NCBI GenBank assembly: GCA_964535955.1
Contig: CAZHVK010000002.1
Location: 8,122-72,121 of the forward strand
Direction of reading: 5' to 3'
DNA length: 64,000 bases
Source: an uncultured Methanosarcinales archaeon
GTDB taxonomy: Archaea > Nanobdellota > Nanobdellia > Woesearchaeales > CAXGTL01
Shown here: positions 1 through 43,782 of the stretch, piece after piece
Layout: the number at the start of each line of letters is the position of its first letter
Position numbering within the stretch: position 1 is the stretch's first letter
Notes under the pieces: model-generated
Told to the model about the DNA's origin: nothing
Seen by the model: only the letters and a program-made list of their open reading frames with translations
Database searches by the model: none
Position numbers and translations under genes: made by a program

Positions 1-1
1 T

Positions 2-3000
2 ACAGGAACAAATCCAACTATAACTTATGAATATAATTCATTTGGTAATTTAATTTTACAAAAAGATCCTAATCAAAATGAAGTGGAATATGAGCACGAT
101 TCAACACATACTTATTTGATAAAAACAACAAATTCATTAGGTCATATATTAGAATATGAATATGATGATTATGGAAATCTAATCTCAACAACAGATTCAA
201 ACGAGAACAAAATAGAATATAAGTATGATGTATTTAACAGAAAAGTAAAAGAGATTTACCCATATGATTCTGAAGAGACTCCAACAATAGAGTATATCTA
301 TGAATTTGATGGAATTGCACCTGAAAAGACAATCACTAAGAAAAAAACAGACCAAGATCAAACATTAGATAGTTATTCTTATTATAGTGGTCTTGGTAAT
401 CTTATCCAATCAAAAATTGAATCTATAGATTCAAAACTAATAACAAGTGACTATTATTATGATGATTTGTTAAGATTAAATTCTAAGACAATTCCTTATT
501 ATGCAAACAATAATGAGTATACAAATCCAAATAAAGAATTGCTAACAACATATAATTATGATACATTAAATAGAATTATAAAAGTCAATAATCCTGATAA
601 TACTATTACAAAAGTAAACTATAACAAGTACATAACAACTACTTATGATGAAAATAATAATCGGCACGATTTTATAAAAGATTCTTCTGGTAATGTGATT
701 GAAGTCAAAGAATATAATGGTGAAGAAATATATCTAACAACTTATGAGTATGACATAAATAATAATCTGATAAAAATAACAGATAGTCAAGATAATGAAA
801 TAAAATATTCCTATGATACTTTAGGAAGGAAAACAACATTAGATGATCCTGACTTAGGTATATGGACATATCAATATGATAATATGGGAAATCTCATTAA
901 ACAAACAAACAATAAAAATCAGGAAATAATATTAACATATGGTCAGTTAAATAGGTTGAAGACAAAAACATCAGAAGAGACATCAGAAACATATACTTAT
1001 GATCAAGAGACAAAAGGAACATTGTCCAAAATAGAAACAAATGATATTACAAAAGAATTTGAGTATGATAATAGATTAAGACTAATAAAAGAAAAGAAAA
1101 AGATTGACAACATAGATTTCATAACAACATATGGATATGATTCTGCAGATAGAGTAACAAAGAAGACATTACCTAATAACGAAGAAATAATCTATGACTA
1201 TGATAAAGCAGGAAACTTAAAAAGTGTAAATAATGTAATCACAGATATTCAGTACAATGAAATTAATATGCCTATATCAAAGACATATAAAAATAATTTA
1301 ATAAGTCAATATGATTATGACAATGAAAATTTCAGACTGAATAGTATTAAGACAAGTGATGTACAAGATTTATCATATGAATATGATAATGTAGGAAATA
1401 TCCTAATTATACAAAATCAAATACAAAATAAAAAACAAGAATTTGAATATGATGATTTGGATAGGTTGACAAAAGCAAAAAAAACAAAACAAGATAATCA
1501 AGAAATAGATTATGAAATTACATACAATTATGATAGTATTGGTAATATGCTTAATCTGAATTCAGATGTTGGAGATTTAGAATATTTATATGAAAACCTA
1601 GCACATACACCATCTACAATAATAACAGATTCTGATGAATTCCCTTGTTTACCTAATTGGGAATGTAGTGAATGGTCTGAATGTGTTGGCAGAAAACAAT
1701 CAAGAACATGTGTTGAATTAAATGAATGTGAAAGACCAATCCCTAAACCTCGTGAACATCAATCATGTAACAATCCACCAGCCATAATTGGTCCACCAGC
1801 AGAAGAAAGGACAATGACAAAAAAAGAAACTGATTTAATCACCCTTAATGTAAATGCAGTTGATGAAGAAGAATTAACATATTCAATAAATGATGAAAAT
1901 TTTGTTCAGGATAATGTTGAAAAGAGCAAGTTCACATGGCAAACAGATTATAATGATGCAGGAACTTATTATCCTATAATTACGGTAAGTGATGGGTTAG
2001 ATACTGTAGATGTGAGTTTTAGATTAACTATAGAAAACCTAAATGCTGCACCAACTATTGAACCCATTAAAGATATGACAGTAAATGAAGGAGAAAAAGC
2101 AGAAGTAATAATAAATGCTGAAGACATTGACAATGATGAACTAACATATTCTATTGATGATGATAGATTTATTCAAAGTAATGGACAAGATAGTGGATTC
2201 TTAATCACAGATGACTTTTCAGACAATGATTACACAAACAACCCAGCATGGGAATTTATGTATAGTGGTGATGATCAAATAGGTGGATCACAAGCTGAGA
2301 TAAAAGATGGCAAAATTAAGATAACATCTAGAAGAACAGACGCAGCTTTTTTAACAATAGGTGAATTTGATTGGTCTGATTATTCTATACAAGCAGATAT
2401 CAAGTTCTCAAATATAAAAGATTATGGAGGCTTAGTTGCAGGAATAGGAGAACCTGATGAAAACGGAAAATTTACTAAAAATGCATACCTAATTTTAAAT
2501 GGGCAAGATGAATCCTTTGAACTTTCTTATAGAGATGTGGCAAATTCTATCCTTGTAAAAGATAGAGCTATTCAAACTATTTCTGAAGATATTGCTTACA
2601 CATTAAAACTTGAATTAAAAGATTTTGAAATAATTGGTTATATTAATGGAGAAGAAAAATTATCAATAGATGTTCCAACAATTGTTCAAGGTAAAGCAGG
2701 ATTAGTCGTGTCCTCAGGTCATCCATCTACAATTGAGTTTGATAATGTTTATATTAAAAGTAAAACTAATAACAACAATATTTTCACATGGCAAACAACA
2801 TATGAAGATGGAGGAATATATGATATTATAGCAACAGTAAGTGATGGAACAGAACAAAGCACAAACTCATTCTTACTTACAATCAATAATATCAATGATG
2901 CTCCAATAGTAGAAAACATAGAACCAATGACAATAGATGAAACAGATACAGCAGAATTAATAATAAATGCACAAGACCCAGATAATGATAAATTAACATA

Positions 3001-5461
3001 CTCAGTAACAATAACAAGGTCCACAATAGTAGCACCTAAATCAGACATTTTTATACAAGATCCTAATCAAGAAAATAAGTTTACATGGAAAACAAATTAT
3101 GAAGACATGGGAACATACTATGTTTATGTTAATGTAGATGATGGTAAATCAAAAACAAGCAAAGATTTCTCACTTACTGTAAATGATATAAATGCACCAC
3201 CAACAATTGAACCAATAGAAGATATAACAGTTGATGAAAATGAACTTGTAACAATAACAATAAATGCAAATGATATTGATGAAGATACTATGACATATTC
3301 TGTTAATAATGACAACTTTGTGAAAACAGAACAATCAAATGTGTTTGAATGGCAGACAAATCATGAAGATGAAGGGACATATAATATAATTGTAACTGTT
3401 AGCGACGGAACAGAGGATATAACAGAAGACTTAACAATAACAATTGAAAACTGTAAAGAAGAATGGTCATGCACAGATTGGACAGAATGCACAGACAGTT
3501 CACAAACAAGAATATGTATTGATAATAGTAAATGCGAATCAGAAGAAGATAAACCACAAGAACAACAACAATGCGAAATGCCATGCATAGAGGACTGGTC
3601 ATGCAATGAATGGTCTGACTGCACAGACAGTTCACAAACAAGAACATGCACAGACAATAACCAATGTGAAACAACAGAAGATAAACCAACAACACAACAA
3701 GAATGTGAAATGCCATGCATAGAAGATTGGATACCTGGTGGATGGTCAGAATGTATAGATGGAATACAAACTTTATCTTATGTAGATTTCAATCAGTGTG
3801 GCACAGAAAATAACAAACCAACAAATGAAAGAGAATGTGAAACAAACAATCCACCAATCCTAGAATCAATTGGTAACAAACAAATAGATGAACTAAAAGT
3901 CTTAGACATATGGGTAGAAGCAAGTGATGAAGACAAAGATGATGAACTAATACTAACACATGATTTCCCTAAATTAACAATCGCAGAGAACTACAACTCT
4001 GGCTCAGAAATAAGAACAAAATATAGATGGCAACCACAATCAGATGATGCAGGCACATACAATGTATTATTCAAAGTAGAAGATTCAAAAGGAGCACAAG
4101 ATCAAGAACAAATAAAAATCATAGTCAATGACATACAAGAAAACACAGCACCATACATTTCACCTAAAATAGATGATATACAAAAAGACATGAATTCAGA
4201 ACCATGGACACTGGATTTAACAGACTATGAAAATGATGCACAAGACACAAACAGAAAACTTAGGTGGAAAGTAAGAGGTGGAAACAAAAACCTTATACAC
4301 ATGTCATTAAACACAAACACTGATGAATTAAAATTCTATCCAATCGAAGACCAATATGGTGAAACAATTATAAAACTAACATTAAGGGATTCAAGTGGTA
4401 AAACAGATACACAAGATGTAAAAATAATGATTAATCAAGTTGAGAATGGACCAGACTATAAATTAAAGATAGGTGCAAAAGATGAGTATTTTGAAAACTT
4501 AATTAATTCAGTGATTAAGTTTGGTAAAAAGACAAAACATGCTAATCCTTATGCATTGTTTAAGATGAGATTTAATGAACCAATTCCTGTAGAAATTAAA
4601 GCAAAAGATTATACAACTAAAGAGATAGATTATTCTTTTAATGAACGAGTTCCAGGATGTAGTGGTACATGTGTCTATAACAATAAAGGATTTAATACAA
4701 GATGCACCAAAGGAAGATCTTATACAGAATGTATATCTACAAAAGATGATACCCAATTTAGTTATGTTTATTTCCCTACAACAAAAGAATTCGTAGTAGA
4801 AGAAAAACTAGATAATTGTTATGTAGCATGCAGATCAGATTCTAATTGCAATGACAACAAACCAAACACAAAAGATTATTGCATAAACCAAGGCACATGC
4901 AATGCAGAGTGTCAGAATGAACCATGCAATGTAAGGTGTGAAAAAGATTCTGATTGTGGTAATAATGCTGTATGTTTCTTACCAAAAACATGTAATTCAT
5001 ATTGTGAAGAAAAATTTTATATTTGCAACATGGAATGCAGAAAAAACTCAGATTGTAATGACAACAAACCAGAAACATACGACATCTGTAGAAATGCAAG
5101 AACATGCAATGCAAAATGTGAATACATAACAAAACCAGAACTAAAACCAGAACTAGAGATAACAAGATTCAGTGTAAAAAGATATCTAAACAACATCGCA
5201 GTAGTCGAATTCAAGATAAAAAACACAGGTGACACAACAGCGCAAGATATTCACTGGCAACTTAACACAGGTGGTGGAATATCTGATCCACAGAGCACAG
5301 AATCACTAACACTAAGACCAGACCAATCAGCAACAATATATTCAACAGGCAATTACCAAAACTCTGGATCATACACAATGGTCTTAACAATTGACCCAAA
5401 CAACTTAGTCAAAGAACAAGATGAGAGCAATAATATTAGAGAATTGGGTGTTAGTATTTGA
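2..5461 (+). CDS. Giant YD-repeat surface protein (5'-partial): YD repeats + Cys/Trp TSP1-like repeats + cadherin/Ig-like repeats + lectin-like insert + Cys-rich repeats + C-terminal CARDB-like domain
   Basis: Frame is open from position 2 (TGTNPTITYEYNSFGNL...), so the true start lies upstream of the window. YD motifs (YDTLGR, YDNMGNL, YDDLDRL), NxxPxIxPIxDxTVxE repeats, CxxxWxCxxWxxC repeats, C-terminal VEFKIKNTG...IDPNNLVKEQDESNN. Confidence 0.85.
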   Translation, partial: TGTNPTITYEYNSFGNLILQKDPNQNEVEYEHDSTHTYLIKTTNSLGHILEYEYDDYGNLISTTDSNENKIEYKYDVFNRKVKEIYPYDSEETPTIEYIYEFDGIAPEKTITKKKTDQDQTLDSYSYYSGLGNLIQSKIESIDSKLITSDYYYDDLLRLNSKTIPYYANNNEYTNPNKELLTTYNYDTLNRIIKVNNPDNTITKVNYNKYITTTYDENNNRHDFIKDSSGNVIEVKEYNGEEIYLTTYEYDINNNLIKITDSQDNEIKYSYDTLGRKTTLDDPDLGIWTYQYDNMGNLIKQTNNKNQEIILTYGQLNRLKTKTSEETSETYTYDQETKGTLSKIETNDITKEFEYDNRLRLIKEKKKIDNIDFITTYGYDSADRVTKKTLPNNEEIIYDYDKAGNLKSVNNVITDIQYNEINMPISKTYKNNLISQYDYDNENFRLNSIKTSDVQDLSYEYDNVGNILIIQNQIQNKKQEFEYDDLDRLTKAKKTKQDNQEIDYEITYNYDSIGNMLNLNSDVGDLEYLYENLAHTPSTIITDSDEFPCLPNWECSEWSECVGRKQSRTCVELNECERPIPKPREHQSCNNPPAIIGPPAEERTMTKKETDLITLNVNAVDEEELTYSINDENFVQDNVEKSKFTWQTDYNDAGTYYPIITVSDGLDTVDVSFRLTIENLNAAPTIEPIKDMTVNEGEKAEVIINAEDIDNDELTYSIDDDRFIQSNGQDSGFLITDDFSDNDYTNNPAWEFMYSGDDQIGGSQAEIKDGKIKITSRRTDAAFLTIGEFDWSDYSIQADIKFSNIKDYGGLVAGIGEPDENGKFTKNAYLILNGQDESFELSYRDVANSILVKDRAIQTISEDIAYTLKLELKDFEIIGYINGEEKLSIDVPTIVQGKAGLVVSSGHPSTIEFDNVYIKSKTNNNNIFTWQTTYEDGGIYDIIATVSDGTEQSTNSFLLTINNINDAPIVENIEPMTIDETDTAELIINAQDPDNDKLTYSVTITRSTIVAPKSDIFIQDPNQENKFTWKTNYEDMGTYYVYVNVDDGKSKTSKDFSLTVNDINAPPTIEPIEDITVDENELVTITINANDIDEDTMTYSVNNDNFVKTEQSNVFEWQTNHEDEGTYNIIVTVSDGTEDITEDLTITIENCKEEWSCTDWTECTDSSQTRICIDNSKCESEEDKPQEQQQCEMPCIEDWSCNEWSDCTDSSQTRTCTDNNQCETTEDKPTTQQECEMPCIEDWIPGGWSECIDGIQTLSYVDFNQCGTENNKPTNERECETNNPPILESIGNKQIDELKVLDIWVEASDEDKDDELILTHDFPKLTIAENYNSGSEIRTKYRWQPQSDDAGTYNVLFKVEDSKGAQDQEQIKIIVNDIQENTAPYISPKIDDIQKDMNSEPWTLDLTDYENDAQDTNRKLRWKVRGGNKNLIHMSLNTNTDELKFYPIEDQYGETIIKLTLRDSSGKTDTQDVKIMINQVENGPDYKLKIGAKDEYFENLINSVIKFGKKTKHANPYALFKMRFNEPIPVEIKAKDYTTKEIDYSFNERVPGCSGTCVYNNKGFNTRCTKGRSYTECISTKDDTQFSYVYFPTTKEFVVEEKLDNCYVACRSDSNCNDNKPNTKDYCINQGTCNAECQNEPCNVRCEKDSDCGNNAVCFLPKTCNSYCEEKFYICNMECRKNSDCNDNKPETYDICRNARTCNAKCEYITKPELKPELEITRFSVKRYLNNIAVVEFKIKNTGDTTAQDIHWQLNTGGGISDPQSTESLTLRPDQSATIYSTGNYQNSGSYTMVLTIDPNNLVKEQDESNNIRELGVSI
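3452..3838 (+). repeat. Three tandem ~132-bp (44-aa) Cys/Trp repeats inside the YD protein
   Basis: Units start at TGT/TGC 3452, 3584 and 3716: CKEEWSCTDWTEC..., CIEDWSCNEWSDC..., CIEDWIPGGWSEC... Confidence 0.9.
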
Positions 5462-5655
5462 TTATAGAGATTAATAAAAAGATATTAAAGTGGTTAAAAT
5501 CATCAAAAAAAAACAAATCCAATTACTAACAATATTTCTTATTCTACTCATCTTAGATATACATCTTTCATCTAAACAATGCACAAATAAAGATTCTATT
5601 AATTTTGAATAGATAATGATAGTAATAAATTCAATGAAAATAGTTTACCATAAAA

Positions 5656-8600
5656 ATGAAATACATTAACCAAATCAAAACAATAATAATAATTTTCTTA
5701 GTTTTAATTAGTTTATCAAATTTTATACATGCAGGGATCTATAGTCAAGATGTTAATAGCCCAACACCCATGGCTGCTTTACCTTTATCAGGAAAACTAG
5801 ACGTTAATCCAAACACAGGAGCAGCATCATATTCATACCCTGTAGAAGTACCTAAAGGGGTGAATGGTTTACAACCGATTGTAAGTATTAATTATAACAG
5901 CCATACTGCTAAATCGCCAACAGGAATAATAAGCAGTGCATGGACATTAACTGAAAACTATATTGAAAGAAATCTTGAAACAAAGAGAGGGTTTACAAGG
6001 TTTGACAATTTTGTTTTATCTCTTAATGGTCAACAACATGAATTAGTATATGATGAGTCAGATGATAGGTATCACACAAATATTGAAACATTCATTCATA
6101 TAAGAAAATTACAAGGTGGAGAAAATGAAAACAAAGAATATTGGGAAATCAAAACAAAAGATGGAACAACATACAGGTTTGGTTATAATGAAGATTCTGA
6201 ATTAATACCTTATAGCAACACAATGAGATGGAGTTTAGATCTTATAACAGATACACATGATAACAAGATATATTACTCATATTATGAATTAGTTAATGAA
6301 AGTATGCCATCATTTATTGAACAACCAATTTTTATACAACCAAAACAAAGGTTTGATGGAATACCTTATCCAAAAAGCATAGAATATAATAATGATAAAA
6401 CACATTCAATAGAATTTGTATACCAAAGAAAAACACATGGCAAAATACAATCATACCATAAAGGATGGAAAACAGAAATATCAAAACAATTAAAAGAAAT
6501 AAATATTAAAACAAATAATAAAATAATGGGCAAATACAGGATCCAGTATACACCATCATTAGGTAATTCAAATTATATCTCAGCAATAAATGATTTTGGA
6601 AAAATAGAAATACAACTAAATAAAGAAGAAATTAAAGCTTTAGATGAATTATTTGATAAATATCCTGAAAAGAAAATAAAAATTATTAATGATCAAGAAT
6701 ACAGAAAAAGATTATTAAATAAAAACCCAGAAATGAAAAATATTGTCCAACTACTAATGCAAATAAGAAAAGTAGATTTTAAATACAGAGTTGTTAAGTA
6801 TGAAGATGGAGAAGAAGAAGAAATTGAGGAAAATATTACAGCAGAAGAAGATAATATTTTTGAAATTATGCAAAATAAGGATTTTACGCAATTCATAGGT
6901 AAAAAAGAAAACACAATTAATGAAAAAAAATCAAATGCTGGATGGGAAAAATTAATATTTGTAGATAAAAATGGTAAAGATCTTGGAGCTCGTTTAGCAG
7001 ACATAAATGGTGATGGATATATTGATTATGTAAGAAAAGATAATACACTATTATTAATTGAAGAAAGTGGTTGGGTTGGAACAACTGGATGGAAATTGCC
7101 TAAAGAGGCAGTGTTTGTTGATAAAAATGGTAAAGACAAAGGAACAAGATTAATCGATCTAAATGGAGATGGTTTTGCAGACTTAGTAAAAAGTAGAATT
7201 TATGGTGAAGATAATTATGAGCAAAAAACATGGTTAAACACAGGAACAAGCTGGATAAAATCAGACAATTTTAAAGTACCAAAAGAAGCAGCATTTATAA
7301 GAAATTACAAAGATTATGGAGTTAGGCTTTCAGATGTTAATGCAGATGGCTTACCAGATATATTAATAAGCAGAGAACTACATAATAACAAATATTATTC
7401 TAAAACTTATATTAACAAAGGTTCTTGGTGGACAGAATCAAATAATTATAATGTTCCTAAAGCTGCTGCCTTTGTTGACTCTGAACACAGAGATAGAGGG
7501 GTTCGTTTAGGAGATATGAATGGTGATGGATTAACAGACATTGTAAGAGCAGGAGACTGTGACTCATCTTGGTGTAGAGGAGTATGGCTTAATACTCATG
7601 GAGGATTTAAAAAAATAGATTACTTAGAAGTACCAGATGAAATAAGTTTTTATGATGAAGAAGAGACATTCATAATAGTAGAAAATGAAAAAGGAAAAAA
7701 ATATCCTGTTAGTGCAGGAGACATACATAAAGATAATGGTATTAGATTAGTTGACATAAATGGCAATGGTTTTTCAGACATTATAAAAGGACAAGATTGC
7801 GACCATAAAAGATGTCAGGGTATTTGGTTTAACTCAGGAAGAACATGGGGTACAATTAAAGGAAATTACTTTTTAAAAGGAATTGTATTTGTCAACAAAG
7901 AAGGTGAAAACAAAGGAGCAAGATTAGCAGATTTTAGTGCTGATAATTATATTGACGCGGTTGTGGGAAGAGCATGTGATTATAAAGGATGCAAAGATCA
8001 CAGAGCATCAATGCCATATCCTATTTATCAATTAAAACTAATAAAAAATCAAAATGGTGGTACAACAACAATTGACTATGAAAGGTCTGTAAAATATGAT
8101 AATACAGGAGATGATTTAATAAATGATCTCCCAAACACTATGTGGGTTGTAAAATCAATTGAACATCACAATGGATTAATGAATGATAAAGAAGTAAAAA
8201 CAAAAACAGAATATTCTTACAAAGATGGATTTTATGATCATATAGAAAGAGAATTCAGAGGCTTTGGCTATGTAGAAACAACAAACTCTGATGGTAGCAA
8301 AGTTAAACACCATTACCACCAAGATAAAGCTAAAAAGGGGTTAGAATATAAAATAGAAATAACAGATAAAGATAACAAAACTCATACGACAACAGAAAAT
8401 ACATTTAGTTCTATAGAAAAAGATGATTATTTTATTGTTAAATTAGATTCAAGTAAAAACTATTTATATGATGGAACCATTGAAAACCCAATAATAACAC
8501 AAACAAATATTGAGTATGATGAATATAATAATATGATAAAAACTTCTTCATTAGGCGATGTTTCAAAACAAGGAGATGAGAAATATTCATATACTGAATA

Positions 8601-10008
8601 TTCTTATGATACTGATAAATGGATTTTAAACACTCCGACAAAGACTTACTTAAAAAATTCAGAAGACTCAACAAAAGTTTCTGAATCTTATTTTGAATAT
8701 AATAATTACGGAGACTTGATCAAATCAGAATCATGGCTAAATACTGGAGAAAACCCAACAACAACTTATGATTATGATTCTTATGGTAATTTAATATCAG
8801 AAATTGATTCAAGAGGATATGAGACAAAGTATGAATATGATTCAACACACATTTTCCCAATTAAAATAATAAATGTACTAGGTCAGGAAAAAATATATGA
8901 ATATGAACATGGAACAGGCAACCTATTATCAACAACAGACCCAAATGGATATAAAACAGAATACAAGTATGATGAACATGGAAGAACAATAAAAGAAATT
9001 CTTCCTTATGATTCTAAAGAATCACCAACAATAGAATACATTTATGATTTTGATGGTATTGCTCCCGGGATCAAGATAACAAAAATAAAAGATGATAAAA
9101 ATAAATATAGAACATTTTATGAAGTTTTTGACGGCCTTGGTAATAAAATAAGAGATATTAAAGAAATAAACAACACAAACATAAAGTATGTGGTTATACA
9201 AAATCATTATGATTCAAATGGAAGATTAGAATCAGTTACAAATCCTATAATTATGAATGATTTAATTATCCCTGGGATAGGAAAAGCAAATCCAGAACTT
9301 GACATGCAAAAATGCGTAATGACTGAATGTAATTTTTATTGTTTTCAAAATAGTGAAGAAAAGGAAGAAAAAGAAAAATGCATACAAGAGAAATGTGAGG
9401 GAAATAGAAATTTACAAGTATGCAATCATTTTCATTATATTGCTAAAGAAGAAAAAGATGGTATTGGGAAAAACAGATATTATTCATTAACAGACGCACA
9501 AGAAAAGGAAATTGATTTCACAACAATAATATACAATGATATATATGGTGAAGATTTAACCAAAATGGCAAAAATAAGAGCACATAAATGGGGAACAAAT
9601 GAATATGAATTAATAAGTTCTGAGAAAACATATTTGCCTTCAGAGGAAAGATATGAAAAAGGAGGTCATCATATAATCAATAAATTAAATAAAGAACATT
9701 TTACAAAAAGATATTTTCAGACATTGATTAAATTAAACATGTTATTTTTAATGAATGACATTGAAGTTAAATTTAGATATAGTGATTATTTATTAAAAGA
9801 CTTGTCTTCAAAACCAAAGACAACTTATGTTTATGATGCTTATGGAAGGAACATAAAAACAATAAAACCAGATGGAACTGAAACAAGAACAATATATAAC
9901 AGGGATACAACCTCTATCTATGATGAAAATGATCATAGAACAGATTATATTAAAGATGTTTATGGAAATATAATTGAAGTTAAAGAATATAATAATAATG
10001 AAATATAA
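5656..10008 (+). CDS. Secreted SpvB/TcB-like protein with FG-GAP repeats and partial YD shell (C-terminally truncated paralog of the upstream gene)
   Basis: Signal peptide MKYINQIKTIIIIFLVLISLSNFIHA; SpvB-like TGAASYSYPVEVPKGVNGLQP; six DxNGDGxxD-type motifs; FRGFGYVETT (TcdB mid-type); YD repeats alignable with the upstream ORF. Confidence 0.85.
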   Translation: MKYINQIKTIIIIFLVLISLSNFIHAGIYSQDVNSPTPMAALPLSGKLDVNPNTGAASYSYPVEVPKGVNGLQPIVSINYNSHTAKSPTGIISSAWTLTENYIERNLETKRGFTRFDNFVLSLNGQQHELVYDESDDRYHTNIETFIHIRKLQGGENENKEYWEIKTKDGTTYRFGYNEDSELIPYSNTMRWSLDLITDTHDNKIYYSYYELVNESMPSFIEQPIFIQPKQRFDGIPYPKSIEYNNDKTHSIEFVYQRKTHGKIQSYHKGWKTEISKQLKEINIKTNNKIMGKYRIQYTPSLGNSNYISAINDFGKIEIQLNKEEIKALDELFDKYPEKKIKIINDQEYRKRLLNKNPEMKNIVQLLMQIRKVDFKYRVVKYEDGEEEEIEENITAEEDNIFEIMQNKDFTQFIGKKENTINEKKSNAGWEKLIFVDKNGKDLGARLADINGDGYIDYVRKDNTLLLIEESGWVGTTGWKLPKEAVFVDKNGKDKGTRLIDLNGDGFADLVKSRIYGEDNYEQKTWLNTGTSWIKSDNFKVPKEAAFIRNYKDYGVRLSDVNADGLPDILISRELHNNKYYSKTYINKGSWWTESNNYNVPKAAAFVDSEHRDRGVRLGDMNGDGLTDIVRAGDCDSSWCRGVWLNTHGGFKKIDYLEVPDEISFYDEEETFIIVENEKGKKYPVSAGDIHKDNGIRLVDINGNGFSDIIKGQDCDHKRCQGIWFNSGRTWGTIKGNYFLKGIVFVNKEGENKGARLADFSADNYIDAVVGRACDYKGCKDHRASMPYPIYQLKLIKNQNGGTTTIDYERSVKYDNTGDDLINDLPNTMWVVKSIEHHNGLMNDKEVKTKTEYSYKDGFYDHIEREFRGFGYVETTNSDGSKVKHHYHQDKAKKGLEYKIEITDKDNKTHTTTENTFSSIEKDDYFIVKLDSSKNYLYDGTIENPIITQTNIEYDEYNNMIKTSSLGDVSKQGDEKYSYTEYSYDTDKWILNTPTKTYLKNSEDSTKVSESYFEYNNYGDLIKSESWLNTGENPTTTYDYDSYGNLISEIDSRGYETKYEYDSTHIFPIKIINVLGQEKIYEYEHGTGNLLSTTDPNGYKTEYKYDEHGRTIKEILPYDSKESPTIEYIYDFDGIAPGIKITKIKDDKNKYRTFYEVFDGLGNKIRDIKEINNTNIKYVVIQNHYDSNGRLESVTNPIIMNDLIIPGIGKANPELDMQKCVMTECNFYCFQNSEEKEEKEKCIQEKCEGNRNLQVCNHFHYIAKEEKDGIGKNRYYSLTDAQEKEIDFTTIIYNDIYGEDLTKMAKIRAHKWGTNEYELISSEKTYLPSEERYEKGGHHIINKLNKEHFTKRYFQTLIKLNMLFLMNDIEVKFRYSDYLLKDLSSKPKTTYVYDAYGRNIKTIKPDGTETRTIYNRDTTSIYDENDHRTDYIKDVYGNIIEVKEYNNNEI

Positions 10009-10022
10009 AGAGCAACTACTGA

Positions 10023-23006: not shown

Positions 23007-23189
23007 TTGAATATACTACTCAGAAGTGAATAATATCGAAACATTTATAAACCTAGTTCTACTTCTCTATATAAATAAAGTATAAGTCATAAGAAGGGGT
23101 TCTTTAGATTAATTACACAATTAAGGGGATAAACTATGTTTCAAAATCTTTAGATTTTGAAGCTGCGAATGAGACAGAGGCGAATGAGT

Positions 23190-26100
23190 ATGAATACACC
23201 ACAAAAAATAGACATAACAATCAATGATCTAATTGATACTATCATAAGATCAAAAGCAAAAAAACCAGAAACAATCAAAAAACACCTAGACCAAGACAAG
23301 ATAAGAGGTAAATTAGCAACTATTTTTGGTCAAGACTATCTAAATAGAACAATAGAAACAATTAAATCTGATTCTAAAGACAAATTAAAAGAAAAAACTG
23401 ATGATGATGGTGACTTGTACTATGATGAAGATGATGTAATAAGACAAATTGAAAGTGATATTGAAAAGATAAGATACACAACAAGACCAACAGGCATAAG
23501 ACCAACATTAGACCAATTAAGAGATTATGTAAACAAAGCAATTAGCCACAGAGCCTGGGATTTATTAGACAAAATATTAAGCTTGTCAGAAGAAGGTGAA
23601 CTAGAACCAAAAGCTGTTCAAAAAATGGCACTAGACAATATTATAGATGGAGATGATGATTCATATGTATTATTTACAAATAAGTTTGGTGAAGTTGATT
23701 TTACAAAAGATGTTGTCATACCAATTTATGATGAACTAATAGAAGAAGAAAATTATATTAAGCTCCAAAGAATAAAAACAGAAACAGGAATTCCTGTTCC
23801 ACAAGATTCATGCCAAGAAAAATATGAAGAAATAGTTTTAGATGACAAATTTTCAAAAATAGATGAATTGTTTAGTGCAAGTGGTGTACAACCAGAGCTG
23901 ACAAAAACAATGAAAAATAACATAATTCAAAGACTAAAAAAACAAGGATTTCAAGGAAAAATATGTGAAAACCGTTGGAGAAACATAGAAGCAGAAGAAG
24001 ATGAAATAAGTTCTTTAGAAAATTATTTTGAAATAAGTAAACAAACAAGATTCATAAGAAAACTTCAAGAAACTGCATTAAGCAATGATTATATAGATAA
24101 TTTCTTAAGATTATATAATATAACTACACACAAGATATCAGAAACAGTTCTTAATGATGGATATAAAAGATTATCGGAAGAATATGAAAAAGATAAAGCA
24201 ATAGACGAAGATGAAAGTCAAGGTAATGAAGAAAAACAAGAAATCAAAAGAGATAGATTAGAAGAAATTCTTAGAATAATAAAAACAACAAAAACAATAA
24301 AAACAAAGAAAATAGCTCACAAGATTTACAATAAATTACTAAAAGAACAAAGATATAAAGAGATAGAACTATTGCAAAAAGACATAAACATAAAACCTAA
24401 ATTTGATAAACAAACAATTGAACACAGATTAATGCAATTATGTGATTCTTCAATACATAGAAGAGACAAATTTAATATGAATAAATTCTTATCATTTGCA
24501 GACATGGTAACTGAAACAGGATTTGAAATACCAAGAACATATATTGACCAAGCATGTTTTAATCATCTTGATCACAAAGGAAGAGCATTTGAATCAATAG
24601 AAAAAGTAAATAAAGTATATAAAAAATTCAATCTAGAACCACATGAAAGTGTTAACTCATATAAAATCATGTGTTTGATGTGGGAATTAGATTCAAAAAT
24701 TAAGAGAAAAGAAACAGAATATAGTAAAAAAGAATATCAAAGAAAGATTTCACCACTTGAACCAATAAACAGATTCAACACAACCATGTATAACAAATAC
24801 AAAACCTCTGTTAATTCATTGGTTAAAAAATATATCAAAGAAATGTCTCAAATAGACAAAACAAAGATAAATAAAAAGGTTTTTGAACAACACAATCATG
24901 AAATGCAAAAAGTATATGAAAGATGTCTAGAATTACTTATAGTCCAAGCATCAAAAAATGAACAATCTCTAGTAAAAGTTGATAAATTAGAAAAACAAAC
25001 AGGAATAAAAATAAAAGATAGAACAATCAGCGACGCAATAAGGAAATTTATAGAAAAAAATTATAGGAATATTGAAAACCCAGAAAACATAATAAAAACA
25101 ATCAACACAAGAACAGACATAAACATAGATTTAGAACAACCATTTTATTATATTCCTGGAATGAAAGCAAATGATACACTTACAGACAAAATAGGGGGCC
25201 ACCTTATCACAGTACAACAGTATCATGAAGAAAGAACAGATTTAGGAGAAAAATTGAATTATCTCCTTGCTTTTGCAAATAAAGATAAATTTTCAGAAAA
25301 AACACAAGCAGAAATAAGAAAAAAGATGATTGAATATTTAGAAAACGGTCAAACAAAGAAATATGATAATCTGATTCCATTCTTATCAAAAAAAATAAGA
25401 TTCAATAAACAAGAAAAACAAACATTAGAACAAAAAGCAATTGAATTTATTAAAAATAGTAGTTGGGAATATGGTGGACTAAACAGATTAAAAAGATTTG
25501 ATTGCATTGCCTCAAGAGCAAACATCAAACCAAAAATACAACAACAAGAATTAAATGAATTAATAAAACAATATTTTGACAAAAGCAATTCAAACAATGC
25601 ACCAACAGATATTTCAAAAAGATTCAATCTAGTTCCAGATGAAAAACAAATAAAAGACAGATATGTTTATTTACTTGAAAAAAAAGAAAAATATGATTGG
25701 CCAGATAAATGGTATGTAAATGATGCAACAAAACAAGTAGAAAAACTAAGAAAAGATACAGGTGTTAAACTAGATAGAGATTATATAAAAATATTTATAC
25801 AAACATGGTTAAATAAACAAGATTATTACAGAGCAAAAGAATATATTAAATTATTCACAGAATCATTTGATTTTAGATATTCTGAACAAGAATTACAAAG
25901 ATTATACAATGGAAATGATAATTATGAAATCGTAAATTTACTATTAAATACACACAAAATACCACCTAACAAAGAAAAAGCAGAAGAAATAATAAAAAAA
26001 GTATATAAAAGTGAAAGAGCTTATGGAAGAGATTTAGTAAAAAGTCTAACTCATGATCATAAGATTCAAACACCAGATGAAATAACAGACAATATCAAAG

Positions 26101-26570
26101 AAAGCATAACATTTTATCTTGAAAAAAGAGAGATTATCAATTTGATTCCAATAGCATATGAATTACACAACATATATAATAAATCAGACATAGTGTCTAA
26201 ACAACAAGCAGAACAAATAATCTCTGAAATAGGTTATTTATTCCAAAAAAGAACAGAAGACATAACAAGATCATCTTTAAATGCATTAGACATATCATAT
26301 ATCTATGAAAAAGCAAATGCTCAAGACAAAGCAATTGACTTTGCAACACAATTATTCAAAACAGCATTTGACAAAGAACTTTATAAGAATAATATCTATA
26401 GAGGATATGTATTTTGCGCAATCACAGGTGCAAAACCAGACTTAGATCAAGAAAAATTAGCAGAACTTAAACATGATGCACAATTATCAGGAAAATATCA
26501 ATACACATTTGGAGCAGAACAAAGACAAGAATATATAGAAATGCTAGACAAATGGGTTTCAGGTGAATAA
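23190..26570 (+). CDS. Large hypothetical helical-repeat protein (TG[IV]K-type repeats)
   Basis: Long ORF with recurring ETGIPV, SGVQPE, ETGFEI, QTGIKI, DTGVKL motifs; start uncertain (23157/23184/23190). Confidence 0.75.
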   Translation: MNTPQKIDITINDLIDTIIRSKAKKPETIKKHLDQDKIRGKLATIFGQDYLNRTIETIKSDSKDKLKEKTDDDGDLYYDEDDVIRQIESDIEKIRYTTRPTGIRPTLDQLRDYVNKAISHRAWDLLDKILSLSEEGELEPKAVQKMALDNIIDGDDDSYVLFTNKFGEVDFTKDVVIPIYDELIEEENYIKLQRIKTETGIPVPQDSCQEKYEEIVLDDKFSKIDELFSASGVQPELTKTMKNNIIQRLKKQGFQGKICENRWRNIEAEEDEISSLENYFEISKQTRFIRKLQETALSNDYIDNFLRLYNITTHKISETVLNDGYKRLSEEYEKDKAIDEDESQGNEEKQEIKRDRLEEILRIIKTTKTIKTKKIAHKIYNKLLKEQRYKEIELLQKDINIKPKFDKQTIEHRLMQLCDSSIHRRDKFNMNKFLSFADMVTETGFEIPRTYIDQACFNHLDHKGRAFESIEKVNKVYKKFNLEPHESVNSYKIMCLMWELDSKIKRKETEYSKKEYQRKISPLEPINRFNTTMYNKYKTSVNSLVKKYIKEMSQIDKTKINKKVFEQHNHEMQKVYERCLELLIVQASKNEQSLVKVDKLEKQTGIKIKDRTISDAIRKFIEKNYRNIENPENIIKTINTRTDINIDLEQPFYYIPGMKANDTLTDKIGGHLITVQQYHEERTDLGEKLNYLLAFANKDKFSEKTQAEIRKKMIEYLENGQTKKYDNLIPFLSKKIRFNKQEKQTLEQKAIEFIKNSSWEYGGLNRLKRFDCIASRANIKPKIQQQELNELIKQYFDKSNSNNAPTDISKRFNLVPDEKQIKDRYVYLLEKKEKYDWPDKWYVNDATKQVEKLRKDTGVKLDRDYIKIFIQTWLNKQDYYRAKEYIKLFTESFDFRYSEQELQRLYNGNDNYEIVNLLLNTHKIPPNKEKAEEIIKKVYKSERAYGRDLVKSLTHDHKIQTPDEITDNIKESITFYLEKREIINLIPIAYELHNIYNKSDIVSKQQAEQIISEIGYLFQKRTEDITRSSLNALDISYIYEKANAQDKAIDFATQLFKTAFDKELYKNNIYRGYVFCAITGAKPDLDQEKLAELKHDAQLSGKYQYTFGAEQRQEYIEMLDKWVSGE

Positions 26571-26572
26571 TA

Positions 26573-29002
26573 ATGCCAGGATTTGGATTAGGTTTGGGTC
26601 TACAAATGCAAACAAGTTGTCACATGCAGTTACAATGTGGTTTACAGTTACAACTAACATTAGCACAACCAACAGACCCTGATGCATTCAGACCAGAAGG
26701 AGAAATAGAACACATTTCTCAGCATGAAATCCTTGAACAATTAATAGAAAAGATTGATAACAAAGAATTCTGCGACAATATTTATTTTGGCTTAGAGATC
26801 AACAGGACAATATTTGGCCATTCTCTTGAGACAAGATTAGGATATTTTGGTAAAGATATACAACAACTTATGGAATTTTATGATAGTAATGAAGAATCAA
26901 CAAAAAACCTCCTGCATATATTAGGCTCAAGAAAAAAAGCACAAATACCACAAAATGTAGAAGATGATGAAATTAATGAAAGACAAGAGATAATACAAAA
27001 ACAAACACCTGGTGTTGTTGCTCATGCATGGAACAACATAAACAAGTCATATTATTTTAAAAAAGAAAAAACAAACAAACAAATATTCAATTTCTTAGCA
27101 TATCTTAATCAAACAGAAGCTGACATTGCTGTTGGTATTGAAAACCTGTCGAAAGTAACAGAATTAAAAAACCAAAGACATTTAGTAAAAAAAACATTTG
27201 ACAAGATAAAATCATATGCTCAAACAGATACAAGACTTATAACATTTAGTAAAAGTATATTATGCCCTATTGTAAAAGCATTAAAACAAAATAAAGAAAA
27301 ACTAACAACAAATGAATCAGAATTATTATACAAAAACATAATAGAATATCTTTTCATGCTTGACCAAGAATTAAGAATAGGTGACACTGTAGAAAAAATA
27401 GCTGATTCAATAAAAGAAAATGGGATAAAAAAACTTCTTAATCAGAAGATTCCAATTCCATTACAAACTTATCTAGAAAATATACAGCCAAACAAAAAAA
27501 CACAAGACAAGATAGTCAACTTATTCAATGAAAAAGAATTTAAACAAGGAAGAGAATTGCAAAGAAAAATTTACAAAGGATTTTCAGCATTAGAAGAACT
27601 TGATAAAGGAAAACAAATTCTGGAACACATAGTAGAAAACACACCAACATCAAAAATATTATCTAGTATTTTATTAAGATTATATCTTGTCCACCACGAA
27701 CCTGATTTTGAATACAATTTTCAACTAGAGAATCATAAAAAAATAATAAGAAACCTAAAATTTCAATTAGTAGACAAAAGCATAAAAAGATTAAACCTTG
27801 ATGATGATACATTAGAAAAATATCTTCAAAGATTAGAAACAGATGACAGATTTCAAAGAATAAGTGGAATAATCACAAAACTTGCAAGTTATAAACATTA
27901 TCAAAATTCTCAACAATTAGAATTATTAAAAGAGATCACAGAACAAGAACTTGATAATAATTTCAATAAATGGAGATATTCTCATGACAAAGCACAAGAA
28001 CAATTAAAAGTACTAGGTAAAGATATAGATGAATGGAAAAATAATACACAAGTTACAAGAATAGTAGGAAAAATAGAAAAAGCTCTCAACACGCATGTAG
28101 AATCTGTTAAAAACATGCTACCAACAATATTTACAATATATAGAGACCATTATGGTAATGAATTTGATGAACCAGATGAAGATGACTTAAAACAACAAAT
28201 ATCTGATAATGAACAAGAATTAAAAACAGGAAATTTGTCAAAAAAACATAAAAAACAAATAGGATATAAGACTTTTTTATTAAGAGAACGTCTGACTTAC
28301 TTAGAATTCATAAACAGCCTAAATCATCTTGATATAAACAATTACACAGACATATTAAATAAAGCACAAGAGATCTTAAAAAAGAAATCAAAAAACCCTG
28401 TATATCAAAATATCCAATGTGTTAAAGAAACACTAGACCAACCAGAATATAGAAATTCAAGAAAAATAATAGTAAGAGAGACAGATGATCTTGAAACAAT
28501 GCTAAGATTCGGTGAAATTCCAGTATCACATTGTCAAAATTGGAAGAGTGAAAGTTCATATAATACATCATTATTAAGCTTTGTTGCAGATGCAAATAAA
28601 AAACTTTACCATATTATAAATGGTGAAGACAAAGCAATTAGTATGACTATAGTAAGATTAATAGATTGGTATGATAACCCTACAATCTTAGCTGAAAATG
28701 TGTATGCAAGAGAATGGTCAGAAGATTATGGTATTGCATTATTCTCTAGCTTAGCAGAAAAAGCATATTCCATATATGAGGAAACAGGCAAACAAGTAAG
28801 AATTGCAACAAATGATTCAAGACTAGAAAAAGCAATGGAACAATTTGCTGAAAAATATGAAATAGAAGTATTTAAAGACACTATTAAAACAATACCTCCT
28901 GAAAGCAAAAACACTAAAGAATACTATGATTTTAGTCATAGAACAGATAAAAAATATATAACAGCAAATGTCAAATATATCTGTTTTGGTGAACAAGAGT
29001 AA
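26573..29002 (+). CDS. Large hypothetical protein with Gln/Leu-rich N-terminus and conserved-looking C-terminal domain
   Basis: Starts 2 nt after the previous stop; C-terminal ETDDLETMLRFGEIPVSHCQNW...DANKK...ENVY. Confidence 0.75.
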   Translation: MPGFGLGLGLQMQTSCHMQLQCGLQLQLTLAQPTDPDAFRPEGEIEHISQHEILEQLIEKIDNKEFCDNIYFGLEINRTIFGHSLETRLGYFGKDIQQLMEFYDSNEESTKNLLHILGSRKKAQIPQNVEDDEINERQEIIQKQTPGVVAHAWNNINKSYYFKKEKTNKQIFNFLAYLNQTEADIAVGIENLSKVTELKNQRHLVKKTFDKIKSYAQTDTRLITFSKSILCPIVKALKQNKEKLTTNESELLYKNIIEYLFMLDQELRIGDTVEKIADSIKENGIKKLLNQKIPIPLQTYLENIQPNKKTQDKIVNLFNEKEFKQGRELQRKIYKGFSALEELDKGKQILEHIVENTPTSKILSSILLRLYLVHHEPDFEYNFQLENHKKIIRNLKFQLVDKSIKRLNLDDDTLEKYLQRLETDDRFQRISGIITKLASYKHYQNSQQLELLKEITEQELDNNFNKWRYSHDKAQEQLKVLGKDIDEWKNNTQVTRIVGKIEKALNTHVESVKNMLPTIFTIYRDHYGNEFDEPDEDDLKQQISDNEQELKTGNLSKKHKKQIGYKTFLLRERLTYLEFINSLNHLDINNYTDILNKAQEILKKKSKNPVYQNIQCVKETLDQPEYRNSRKIIVRETDDLETMLRFGEIPVSHCQNWKSESSYNTSLLSFVADANKKLYHIINGEDKAISMTIVRLIDWYDNPTILAENVYAREWSEDYGIALFSSLAEKAYSIYEETGKQVRIATNDSRLEKAMEQFAEKYEIEVFKDTIKTIPPESKNTKEYYDFSHRTDKKYITANVKYICFGEQE

Positions 29003-41340: not shown

Positions 41341-43782
41341 GTGACATATGAAATAGTAATCGGAAGAAATAAACAACAGATCGAACAATATGGTAAATTA
41401 GGAACTATTTTCTTAGCAAAACAATATGTCCAGATGGGTCAGGTCACATCATTAGCAAATGAAGTTTACATGGACATTGCAAGTGCACATGTTGTATTTG
41501 TAGTAGGTAAGAGAGGCTGTATTACAGGTGATACTAAAATATTTACTAATAGTGGATATAAGGATATTAAAGATTTTGATGAAACAAATGACTTAGTAAT
41601 ATCATTTAACAAAAACAAAGAAAGTTTTCAATGGGAAAATGCTAAATTACTAAAATACGACACTAAAAAGAGTGAAGAAATGATCAAAATTCAAAATTAT
41701 GATGGTCAAGAATTAATAATGACAAAAGAACATCCTTTATTAATTAAAGAAAAAGGAAAATTAATCTGGAAAAATGCAGAAAATCTGAAAAAAGGTGATA
41801 TTCTAGTAGGAATTTCAAAAGTTCCAGAAGTAAAGAATGATTCTGAAAGTCTAAGAATTGCAAGATTATTAGGATTTATATTAGCAGATGGAACAATGCA
41901 AGCAAGAAAAGGCAGATTTAAAGATGGTAGAGGGAAATGGTATAATGGGACAAAAAGAAGAGTAAGAATAATAAATGCTTCAGAAGATGTTCTAAAAACA
42001 TCAAAACAAGATTTAGAAAAAGAATTCAATATTACAGCAAAAAGATACAAAAAAAGTAAAGAAAACTGCTATGTTATTGAAACAAAACAAGGGAAAGTTC
42101 TAAGAAAATTAAATAAATTAGGGATTCCACTAGGATTAAAATCTCATAAAATAAGAGTTCCAAAAGTAGTATTTGAAAGTTCAAATAAATTTAAAGCAAA
42201 TTTTTTAAAAGCATTATTTTCTTGTGATGGTTATGTTAATAAAGATGGAAAACATATTGTTTATTATTCAAAATCCAGAAGATTTTTAGAAGATCTTAAT
42301 TTAGTGTTAAATCATTTTAATATTCAATCAACAATAAGGGATAAAATTGTGAAATTAAATGGCAAAATATTTCCTAATTTTCAGCTTTATATTACAGACC
42401 ATAATTCTTTAGAAAGTTTCAAGAAAATAGGATTTACAGATACGACTAAAGAAAAAAAATTAAGTAAACATAAATTCTGGAGAATGAAAAGAAGAAAAAG
42501 AACAAAATATTTTAATAATGATGTATTCGAACAAAAGATTACAAAGGTTTCTAAGATAAAAGGAGTTAAAGAAGTGTATGATTTACAGGTTCTTGAAAAT
42601 AATTCATTCATAGCAAATGGAATTATCTCCCATAACAGCGGAAAATCCTACACAATGGGAGTCATAGCAGAAGGCTTAGCTTCAATGCCAATCAAAGTCA
42701 GAAATAATCTAAGCATTGTGATGCTAGATACAATGGGTGTTTATTGGACAATGAAATATCCAAATAGACAAGATTCAGAAATTCTTAGAGATTGGAACCT
42801 AGAGCCAAAACCACTTGATGTCATAATCTTTACACCAATTGGTTATTATAATAAATATAAAGAAGAAGGTGTTCCAACTGATTATCCTTTTTCAATCAAA
42901 CCTTCAGAATTAAGTATAGTCGACTGGTGTCTTAGTTTTGGTATTGATAGGAATTCAGATCTTGGTGTATTGATAGAACGAGTTATCAATGATCTCGGTG
43001 AGAGAAAAAAAGATTATTCAATAGATGATATAATAAAGGCAATAAAAGATGACACAAAATCAGGGGATAATATAAAAAATGCAGCAGAAAATCGTTTTCT
43101 TAACACAGAAACATGGGGTTTATTTTCAGAACAAGGTGTTAAACTAATTGATTTAGTCAAACCAGGAAAAATAACTATCTTAGATGTAAGTTGTTATGCA
43201 ACTGTTCCAGGTGGTTGGACAATAAAATCTTTAGTAATTGGTTTAGTTGCACAAAAATTATTTATTGATAGGATGAAGCAAAGAAAAACAGAAGAATTTG
43301 CAGACATTGAAAAATCCATCCACTTTTTCTCAGAAAAAAAAATAACAACAATGCCTCTTGTTTGGTTAGTCATTGATGAAGCACATGAATTCTTACCAAA
43401 CAAAGGAAAAACAACTGCAAGTGACGCCCTAATTACAATCTTAAGAGAAGGAAGACAACCAGGAATCTCATTAATCTTAGCTTCACAACAACCAGGAAAG
43501 ATACACACAGATGTAATGACACAATCAGACATAATAGTTGCACACAGACTAACAGCAAAGATTGACACAGATGCATTAGCAGTATTAATGCAAAGTTATA
43601 TGAGAGAAGGCCTTGACAGACAACTAGACAATCTTCCAGGTGAAAAAGGTTCTGCATTAATAATAGATGACCAGAATGAAAGAATCTATCCAGTCCACAT
43701 AAGACCAAGGTTCACATGGCATGGTGGTGGATCACCGATTGCTATAAGACAACAAGTTAAAAAGAATGAGTTTGATTTATAA
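41341..43782 (+). CDS. HerA/FtsK-like (DUF87) ATPase containing an intein
   Basis: Walker A GKRG|SGKS split by the intein; LVIDEAHEF, LREGRQPGISLILASQQP. Confidence 0.9.
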   Translation: MTYEIVIGRNKQQIEQYGKLGTIFLAKQYVQMGQVTSLANEVYMDIASAHVVFVVGKRGCITGDTKIFTNSGYKDIKDFDETNDLVISFNKNKESFQWENAKLLKYDTKKSEEMIKIQNYDGQELIMTKEHPLLIKEKGKLIWKNAENLKKGDILVGISKVPEVKNDSESLRIARLLGFILADGTMQARKGRFKDGRGKWYNGTKRRVRIINASEDVLKTSKQDLEKEFNITAKRYKKSKENCYVIETKQGKVLRKLNKLGIPLGLKSHKIRVPKVVFESSNKFKANFLKALFSCDGYVNKDGKHIVYYSKSRRFLEDLNLVLNHFNIQSTIRDKIVKLNGKIFPNFQLYITDHNSLESFKKIGFTDTTKEKKLSKHKFWRMKRRKRTKYFNNDVFEQKITKVSKIKGVKEVYDLQVLENNSFIANGIISHNSGKSYTMGVIAEGLASMPIKVRNNLSIVMLDTMGVYWTMKYPNRQDSEILRDWNLEPKPLDVIIFTPIGYYNKYKEEGVPTDYPFSIKPSELSIVDWCLSFGIDRNSDLGVLIERVINDLGERKKDYSIDDIIKAIKDDTKSGDNIKNAAENRFLNTETWGLFSEQGVKLIDLVKPGKITILDVSCYATVPGGWTIKSLVIGLVAQKLFIDRMKQRKTEEFADIEKSIHFFSEKKITTMPLVWLVIDEAHEFLPNKGKTTASDALITILREGRQPGISLILASQQPGKIHTDVMTQSDIIVAHRLTAKIDTDALAVLMQSYMREGLDRQLDNLPGEKGSALIIDDQNERIYPVHIRPRFTWHGGGSPIAIRQQVKKNEFDL
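41518..42636 (+). mobile_element. 373-aa intein with LAGLIDADG endonuclease inserted in the P-loop
   Basis: Begins C(ITGDT), block B TKEHP, LGFILADG / LFSCDG, ends VYDLQV...ISHN followed by Ser. Confidence 0.95.

Follow-up and report, generated by a model that had tools for sequence, protein, structure and literature searches.

We analyzed a 64,000-nt stretch of contig CAZHVK010000002.1 (hereafter the window), deposited as DNA of an uncultured Methanosarcinales archaeon, with attention to the RHS-type locus at its left edge. The giant gene of this locus enters the window as an open reading frame (ORF) on the plus strand at nt 2–5461, which counts 1,819 codons, is open at the left edge and closes with a TGA stop at 5459–5461. 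Upstream DNA was retrieved via exact-protein look-ups, in which the sequence of the following gene, ORF2, matched the 53-kb Joint Genome Institute (JGI) contig Ga0118720_1000719. This contig supplied the missing N-terminus of 1,194 residues, a recovery proposed as a check in the original prediction made from the window sequence alone, and placed the start of the giant gene 3,582 nt upstream of the window (L001 765, equal to L004 10001). L004 coordinates denote the locus including the upstream DNA, in which window positions ~1–10022 are the right part of the island. Joining the JGI upstream part to the window gave a frame of 3,013 codons without stops, of which the window ORF represents the C-terminal 60%; an ORF of this length at 29% GC argues that the giant gene is under selection. 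Two short genes encoding RHS core proteins are located directly upstream of its start, outside the window (Table 1). Contig scans of genomes with the giant protein and of metagenomes with the upstream fragment found no relatives.

The giant protein and its short neighbors

The recovered N-terminus contains a signal peptide, an SpvB-like region, FG-GAP/VCBS propeller repeats and TcdB_toxin_midN (Pfam; FG-GAP_3 E 3.5e-13, TcdB_toxin_midN E 3.9e-26). Pfam did not directly detect SpvB in the giant protein, the N-terminus of which shares 34% identity with the region of ORF2 that Pfam assigns to SpvB. The succession of SpvB region, beta-propeller, TcdB_toxin_midN and RHS repeats is that of TcB proteins, and because the recovered part has the SpvB-like, propeller and TcdB_midN components we regard the giant protein as a TcB-like shell that carries a long tail. 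The FG-GAP propeller is interrupted by a Cys-rich domain of ~240 aa (giant protein aa ~480–720, L001 765–4346); this insert is common to P0002 and P0007 and yielded only a weak PliI-like Pfam match.

Within the first ~540 residues of the window ORF, Pfam RHS_repeat matched six stretches (E 1.6e-32), and NCBIfam YD_repeat (TIGR01643) matched five stretches of the ORF (E 5.6e-19). The repeats end at nt ~1615–1630, right behind a shell-end motif that recurs across the family with the consensus Y.Y....(P)HAP/HAV; in family alignments of 31–32 sequences Y530 was invariant and H535 at least 90% conserved. The original prediction of a Tc/RHS-type YD shell was borne out by the YD profiles together with the TcdB_toxin_midN, FG-GAP and SpvB-like N-terminus. 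Its further claim, that the YD repeats stop near nt 1610 with no RHS core or autocleavage motif in cis, was confirmed by profiles, phmmer and string search. The window ORF gave no TIGR03696 or PF03527 match at E<=1, phmmer found no match between the giant protein and the bona fide RHS core of the neighboring genes, and neither DPxG nor PxxxxD[PD]xG occurs anywhere in the 3,013 aa. A core between nt 1500 and 1650, which the prediction had named as evidence against itself, was also looked for and not found. A hidden RHS core elsewhere in the window was ruled out, as none was present in six frames of the 64 kb. Of the two hallmarks of RHS/YD shell proteins, the giant polypeptide has multiple YD repeats as a beta-hairpin spiral (profiles, AlphaFold2 pLDDT >90, Foldseek E 1e-27) and does not contain an RHS-associated core with a PxxxxDPxG site. 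Searching for a core within the ORF is a limited test, because a core supplied by a neighboring gene is invisible to it.

Such cores are found in the two short genes. Each encodes a signal peptide, 3–4 YD repeats, an RHS core and then a C-terminal toxin-like region. Rhs_assc_core (TIGR03696) was above cutoff in both proteins (E ~2e-19), with the core motifs YYHPNHLGST, YKPFG and YYNARYYSP and the PxxxxDPxG site NNPVKNSDPSGN. Their N-terminal ~245 aa are closely similar and their C-termini unrelated, as expected of polymorphic toxins. One of these C-termini is rich in Pro and finishes in a His-rich segment; the other, belonging to the 513-aa protein, combines a glycine-zipper stretch with an end that is weakly ParB-like. 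Ahead of the cleavage motif, YD repeats and core together span only ~215 aa; with just 3–4 repeats and a plug, the short proteins on their own could enclose nothing. The 459-aa and 513-aa genes flank a 157-aa ORF that had no family match in Pfam, NCBIfam or PDB sequence searches; we regard it as a candidate immunity protein. As a family, the short core proteins are represented by 120 listed matches with a median length of 482 aa and the cleavage motif at ~residue 236; the listed proteins bear RHS core names, come from Woesearchaeota, Nanoarchaeota and Paceibacterota and in some cases have a Pfam ParBc C-terminus.

The C-terminal 1,275 aa of the giant protein consist of extracellular adhesin-type domains and contain all 44 cysteines of the window ORF. 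The composition proposed for this tail in the original prediction largely held: Cys/Trp, Ig-like, lectin-like, Cys-rich and CARDB parts were all recovered, and the part that did not hold was TSP1 homology. Pfam TSP_1 was not detected in the four ~44-aa Cys/Trp modules, so that "TSP1-like" describes a resemblance only. Six Ig-like domains were recognized (Big_9 in 5 stretches, E 4.5e-17, with Cadherin_4, He_PIG and PKD_4 above cutoff), across which the signature F.W.T...D.G.Y recurs. The insert within the second of them resembles the Glyco_hydro_59_C lectin domain over aa 782–919 (E 9e-5), at 22.9 bits and below the 27-bit cutoff. A tail-only homologue search returned just generic multi-Ig surface proteins at 21–39% identity, ordinary surface proteins of Woesearchaeota and Patescibacteria, and no protein matching the whole tail. 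For the first tail domains AlphaFold2 gave no usable model (pLDDT <50 after aa 545).

Table 1. Positions of the features of the locus. Plain coordinates refer to the window, those marked L004 to the locus including upstream DNA.
Feature	Position	Strand	Basis or remark
Short core/toxin gene, 459 aa	L004 6587-7966	same as giant gene	TIGR03696
Short core/toxin gene, 513 aa	L004 8426-9967	same as giant gene	TIGR03696
C-terminal 543 aa of YD/RHS beta-hairpin shell	2..1630	+	RHS_repeat x6, YD_repeat_2x x5, AlphaFold2, Foldseek
Shell-end motif YLYENLAHTPS	1583..1615	+	aa 528-538, family-wide
Cys/Trp module 1	1646..1768	+	pattern CLPNWECSEWSEC...Q.R.C...C...C
Four Ig-like domains (Big_9/cadherin-like/He_PIG/PKD), second split by insert	1769..3448	+	Pfam
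Lectin/jelly-roll-like insert, ~187 aa, within Ig-like domain 2	2207..2767	+	boundaries read from sequence
Cys/Trp modules 2-4, tandem	3452..3850	+	module 3 = 3584-3715
Ig-like domains 5 and 6	3851..4435	+	Big_9 stretches, weak K319L-like PKD match, F.W.T...D.G.Y signature
~120-aa domain	4436..4804	+	no Pfam match
Three ~35-aa Cys-rich repeats, C...C...SDC.D...C...C...C	4805..5149	+	pattern read from sequence
CARDB domain and stop codon	5150..5461	+	CARDB aa 1727-1813, 35 bits vs cutoff 22.7
Remnant of short RHS-core toxin gene	5458..5612	+	32 nt upstream region + 40 codons, stop
ORF2, paralogous TcB-like gene, 1,450 aa	5656..10008	+	signal peptide, SpvB, FG-GAP, TcdB_toxin_midN, YD

Homologous loci, fold and genomic setting

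Homologues of the giant protein form a family with SpvB, FG-GAP, TcdB_midN and YD parts, which match the query in its YD third only. They originate from Woese-, Pace-, Nano-, Micr-, Aenigm- and Altiarchaeota, from bacteria of the Candidate Phyla Radiation (CPR) and from assorted other bacteria. A shell gene was paired with a short core gene in all 8 loci examined (7 besides our own), each of the 7 others having at least one short gene on the same strand and abutting the TcB-like gene, in some cases with overlapping start and stop. TIGR03696 was confirmed in the short genes of 4 of these 7 loci; in a fifth, L089, the core motifs were read directly, and for the last two, P0012 and L090, precomputed TEN_YD-shell hits are the sole basis for the short genes. 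L089 also harbors two short genes with similar N-terminal parts and unrelated C-termini. Small ORFs are frequent neighbors in these loci, among them Imm26, Colicin_immun and Tox-REase-7. The split layout recurs in lineages that are just 31–46% identical across the YD region, and our locus with its many relatives suggests that an RHS system split at the gene level is widespread among Woese-, Pace-, Nano-, Micr- and Aenigmarchaeota.

Natural fusions occur at the same position. In 25 of 120 homologues the HAP motif is followed within one chain by the last YD repeats, the RHS core and a toxin. Six terminate exactly at the shell-end motif, and others continue after it with MopE-like, dockerin, beta-helix, LamG or CARDB surface domains; Big_9 and CARDB tails behind the shell are likewise found among homologues. 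Some fused members carry surface domains between motif and core (CARDB-like in P0071, ~500 aa in P0053), and in the split locus L005 extra domains (DNRLRE, LamG) are located at the N-terminus of the core protein. Fused and split layouts considered together, accessory domains are always placed at the shell/plug junction.

AlphaFold2 modelled window aa 1–543 as a confident beta-hairpin spiral (pLDDT >90), followed by low-confidence or unstructured sequence after aa 543 (nt 1630). The best Foldseek match of this part was the TcdB2-TccC3 fusion chain with a query-normalized TM-score (TMq) of 0.70, compared with 0.41 for TcC alone, 0.27 for TcB alone, ~0.2 for teneurins and 0.33 for the bacterial teneurin-like protein (TLP), teneurins and TLP together spanning 0.18–0.34. 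Residues 761–1960 of the fused homologue P0071, from TcdB_midN to the core, were modelled with a pTM of 0.71, the shell and short core segment being predicted with high confidence, the inserted domain and toxin with low confidence. This model covered TccC2 with a target-normalized TM-score (TMt) of 0.69 and matched TcdB2-TccC3 with TMq 0.66. In sequence, the N-terminus of the mature short protein corresponds to the ~200 residues that immediately precede the cleavage site in RhsP and TLP, and its core part to the last ~110 residues of TccC3. These fold and sequence matches indicate that the giant protein would contribute the equivalent of TcB plus most of the TcC shell, and the short proteins exactly the final repeats and plug absent from the giant shell.

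The window is archaeal by CDC48, SMC, HerA, an intein and 29% GC. Among genomes, CDC48 matched best in metagenome-assembled genomes (MAGs) bearing Woesearchaeota and Nanoarchaeota labels and in one, at 89%, whose label of "uncultured Methanosarcinales" is probably wrong. Woesearchaeota belong to Nanobdellati (DPANN group), and the earlier assignment to a DPANN archaeon stands, as Woesearchaeota-type. Several GTDB representative MAGs titled "uncultured Methanosarcinales archaeon" have CDC48 genes 68–89% identical to that of the window and fall among the Woesearchaeota and Nanoarchaeota matches, so that these titles look mislabelled. The YD/RHS island (L004 6162–23603) lies between Sua5/GatD and CDC48. 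In the closest genome found (CAZYAB010000006.1) it is absent and CDC48 (89%) is directly followed by Sua5 (76%) and GatD (91%). The whole ~17.4-kb island is therefore accessory, a pattern typical of conflict systems.

Downstream of the giant gene, the 194-nt spacer before ORF2 holds the remnant of a short gene, comprising a signal peptide and the start of a first YD repeat, VVKIIKKKQIQLLTIFLILLILDIHLSSKQCTNKDSINFE*; counting 32 nt of upstream region, it matches the beginning of the 459-aa gene (L004 6587) at 130 of 155 nt, ungapped (84%). ORF2 itself falls ~297 aa short of the family shell end, terminating at the island edge beside CDC48, has a ~190-aa Lys/Cys-rich insert at about aa 1202–1389, and is probably a degenerate second module. 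A TcA partner was not found, as VRP1, TcA_TcB_BD and neuraminidase-like domains were missing from the large window ORFs and from 10 kb upstream. Neither tRNA genes nor Rfam families were detected in scans of the window. Further along the window, a HerA/DUF87-type ATPase gene (41341–43782) is interrupted by an intein (Intein_splicing) with a LAGLIDADG_3 homing endonuclease. Two adjacent ORFs of 1,137 and 809 aa (23157–26570 and 26573–29002) had no Pfam match at E<=0.001 and could be lineage-specific surface or other proteins.

A proposed split toxin system and competing explanations

The observations to be explained are the domain anatomy, a core located in neighboring genes and not in cis, the synteny, the fusions, the fold match and the accessory island. 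We consider it likely that the locus encodes a split, TcA-less RHS polymorphic toxin of the TcdB/TcaC class, consisting of a tailed shell, exchangeable plug-toxins and at least one immunity candidate. The giant protein would then probably be one subunit of a two-part toxin system, not a harmless adhesin.

From this arrangement we infer physical assembly, encapsulation, cleavage, toxicity and a ligand for the tail, along the following lines. The first ~1,734 aa of the giant protein would form a Tc "B-like" cocoon that ends at the HAP/HTP motif, just short of the last 3–4 YD repeats and the RHS core plug, and its YD spiral would, by fold, also span much of the share of TcC in Photorhabdus. The small upstream-encoded proteins would bring the missing repeats, the core plug, the aspartyl autoprotease site and the variable toxin. 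A short plug-toxin protein would dock on the open rim of the shell, complete and seal it, and cleave itself, with the toxin domain staying inside. The 1,275-aa tail would emerge outside at the shell/plug junction and bind a surface, most likely that of a host or competitor cell, taking the targeting role that TcA, a type VI secretion system (T6SS) or a cell-wall anchor has in other RHS systems. The 157-aa ORF between the toxin genes would act as the immunity protein.

The original prediction had instead described a non-toxic, re-purposed protein, and in its developed form this explanation holds that toxin function was lost, that the shell is a rigid, empty, teneurin-like adhesin base and that the short RHS toxins are independent secreted effectors. 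We find this unlikely. It agrees with the lack of a core or DPxG in cis, with the very large adhesin-type tail whose homologues are ordinary surface proteins, with the short toxins having signal peptides of their own and with the six family members that end at the shell and have no cargo. It leaves unexplained the tight same-strand pairing in 8/8 loci and the natural fusions exactly at the shell-end motif, found in 25/120 homologues. The terms "non-toxic" and "re-purposed" also sit badly with a core and autoproteolysis motif in two upstream genes. Moreover, the last 3–4 YD repeats and plug of the short proteins are the very piece that the shell lacks, and the YD part in the window is far closer in fold to TcB-TcC than to teneurin.

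A decaying locus, in which the giant gene is a former fused toxin minus its core and the short genes are orphan toxin cassettes retained for recombination as in classical rhs loci, without joint function, appears to us improbable. Two cassettes with similar N-terminal regions and different C-termini, the remnant of a third cassette at window 5490–5612, the truncation of ORF2 and a stop codon in the tail in one assembly all fit with decay. Set against these are cassettes with complete starts and signal peptides, located upstream and not downstream of the large gene, and a giant gene that offers no core-homologous stretch for recombination and retains its 3,013-codon frame intact. The same split layout in lineages only distantly similar across the YD region, and the existence of over 100 short core proteins (~480 aa) that stand alone, also disagree with this scenario. 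Mis-assembly of a YD part and an adhesin tail from different genes is very improbable. Over 20 kb the JGI contig and the window differ at 31 positions only, all within nt 3574–3707, which fall in one 132-nt repeat, Cys/Trp module 3, where identity is 78%. These differences, the one observation in favor of mis-assembly, point to tandem Cys/Trp repeats that are either polymorphic or difficult to assemble, and they reflect either strain-level variation, gene conversion in the tandem repeat or assembly error. The YD/tail junction is identical in the two independent assemblies and many homologues share the shell-then-surface-domain layout, by which a chimeric ORF, raised by the original prediction as its own possible undoing, was rejected.

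Several points weigh against the split toxin. The giant protein has no C-terminal membrane anchor and might not stay on the cell. In the JGI version, module 3 contains a TAA stop (QQEC*MP) that would divide the protein into 2,429-aa and 583-aa products. The two toxin-like C-termini had no significant Pfam, NCBIfam or PDB sequence match; the ParB-like character of the 513-aa C-terminus is a weak suggestion from slight similarity to ParBc-containing relatives, and no immunity-like ORF follows the 513-aa gene. ORF2 truncation together with the short-gene remnant means that a second module, part of the island, is decaying. Binding of the shell to a short core protein is something that we infer, and the mapping onto TcB and TcC was made by TM-score, on a fold that is repetitive, and not by aligning residues. 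Finally, each of the three proteins carries a signal peptide of its own, which would require assembly and toxin enclosure to be extracellular; this is not known for any separate-subunit RHS system. Overall, a split toxin system is the best-supported reading, as synteny, fusions, the intact frame and the agreement of two assemblies weaken its rivals.

If the subunits do assemble, they would represent a new division of the Tc/Rhs cocoon between polypeptides and give a way to test how DPANN archaea interact with hosts or competitors, at a time when little is known of how DPANN episymbionts recognize, attach to and damage their hosts. An annotation trap would also be corrected, in that "core-less" YD shells would not necessarily be toxin-less. 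More tentatively, and with considerable doubt, DPANN archaea and some CPR bacteria may widely use a TcA-independent, two-piece machine of cocoon and plug-toxin, with swappable plugs and a tail that picks the target cell. Were this true, such loci would determine host range or host killing in episymbiotic archaea. In archaea as a whole, polymorphic RHS toxins were thought rare (Zhang et al. 2012, PMC3482391).

Relation to known RHS systems

Like teneurins and bacterial TLPs (PMC5851990, PMC13018210), the latter of which combine an enclosed toxin with adhesin domains, the giant protein joins a YD shell to extracellular adhesion domains, and an alignment of the short core protein with the core of TLP was obtained at E 7e-13. 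Teneurins and TLPs have the FN-plug, NHL propeller and Rhs core in the same chain, none of which is present in the giant protein. NHL, ABD, Tox-GHH and core domains were all absent from it; with a TMq of 0.70 to TcdB2-TccC3 versus ~0.2 to teneurins, the earlier label "teneurin-like" was dropped. WapA of Bacillus subtilis is a Sec-exported surface RHS protein that delivers a C-terminal toxin to neighbors without T6SS or TcA and has a cognate immunity gene. WapA consists of one chain that includes the core and lacks an SpvB/propeller module, unlike the split system proposed here.

A closer likeness exists to the Tc BC cocoon (Photorhabdus TcdB2-TccC3, Yersinia YenB-YenC2), which shares the SpvB-like region, FG-GAP propeller, TcdB_toxin_midN and YD shell and is similarly made of two polypeptides, with the plug, aspartyl autoprotease site and variable toxin on the second. 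TcC comprises a ~680-aa RHS half-shell, a core and a 200–400-aa hypervariable toxin, and measures 851–1,050 aa in 97% of cases (PMC7861908). At 459 and 513 aa, the short proteins are smaller than TcC while having a core and a variable C-terminus. In contrast to the Tc complex, the split here is near the shell end, with ~215 aa of YD repeats and core on the second subunit as opposed to ~680 aa. Further differences are that a TcA injector was not found in this locus, that both subunits have Sec signal peptides, that the host is an archaeon and that the shell subunit bears a 1,275-aa adhesin-type tail.

Finally, TcdB/TcaC-class RHS toxins are single chains with a signal peptide, SpvB, an integrin-like propeller, RHS repeats and a C-terminal toxin, followed by a downstream immunity gene, and have been reported in a few Euryarchaeota (Zhang et al. 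2012, PMC3482391). We found no description of a split form, or of abundance in DPANN, in the literature on DPANN with RHS, TcdB, SpvB or Tc toxins. Our locus shares with this class the N-terminal module, the repeat shell, polymorphic C-termini and small immunity-like ORFs, and 25 of the 120 homologues are exactly of the fused type. What sets it apart is a chain that is broken at the HAP motif, with separately exported plug-toxin genes upstream and a shell gene that runs on into surface-binding domains.

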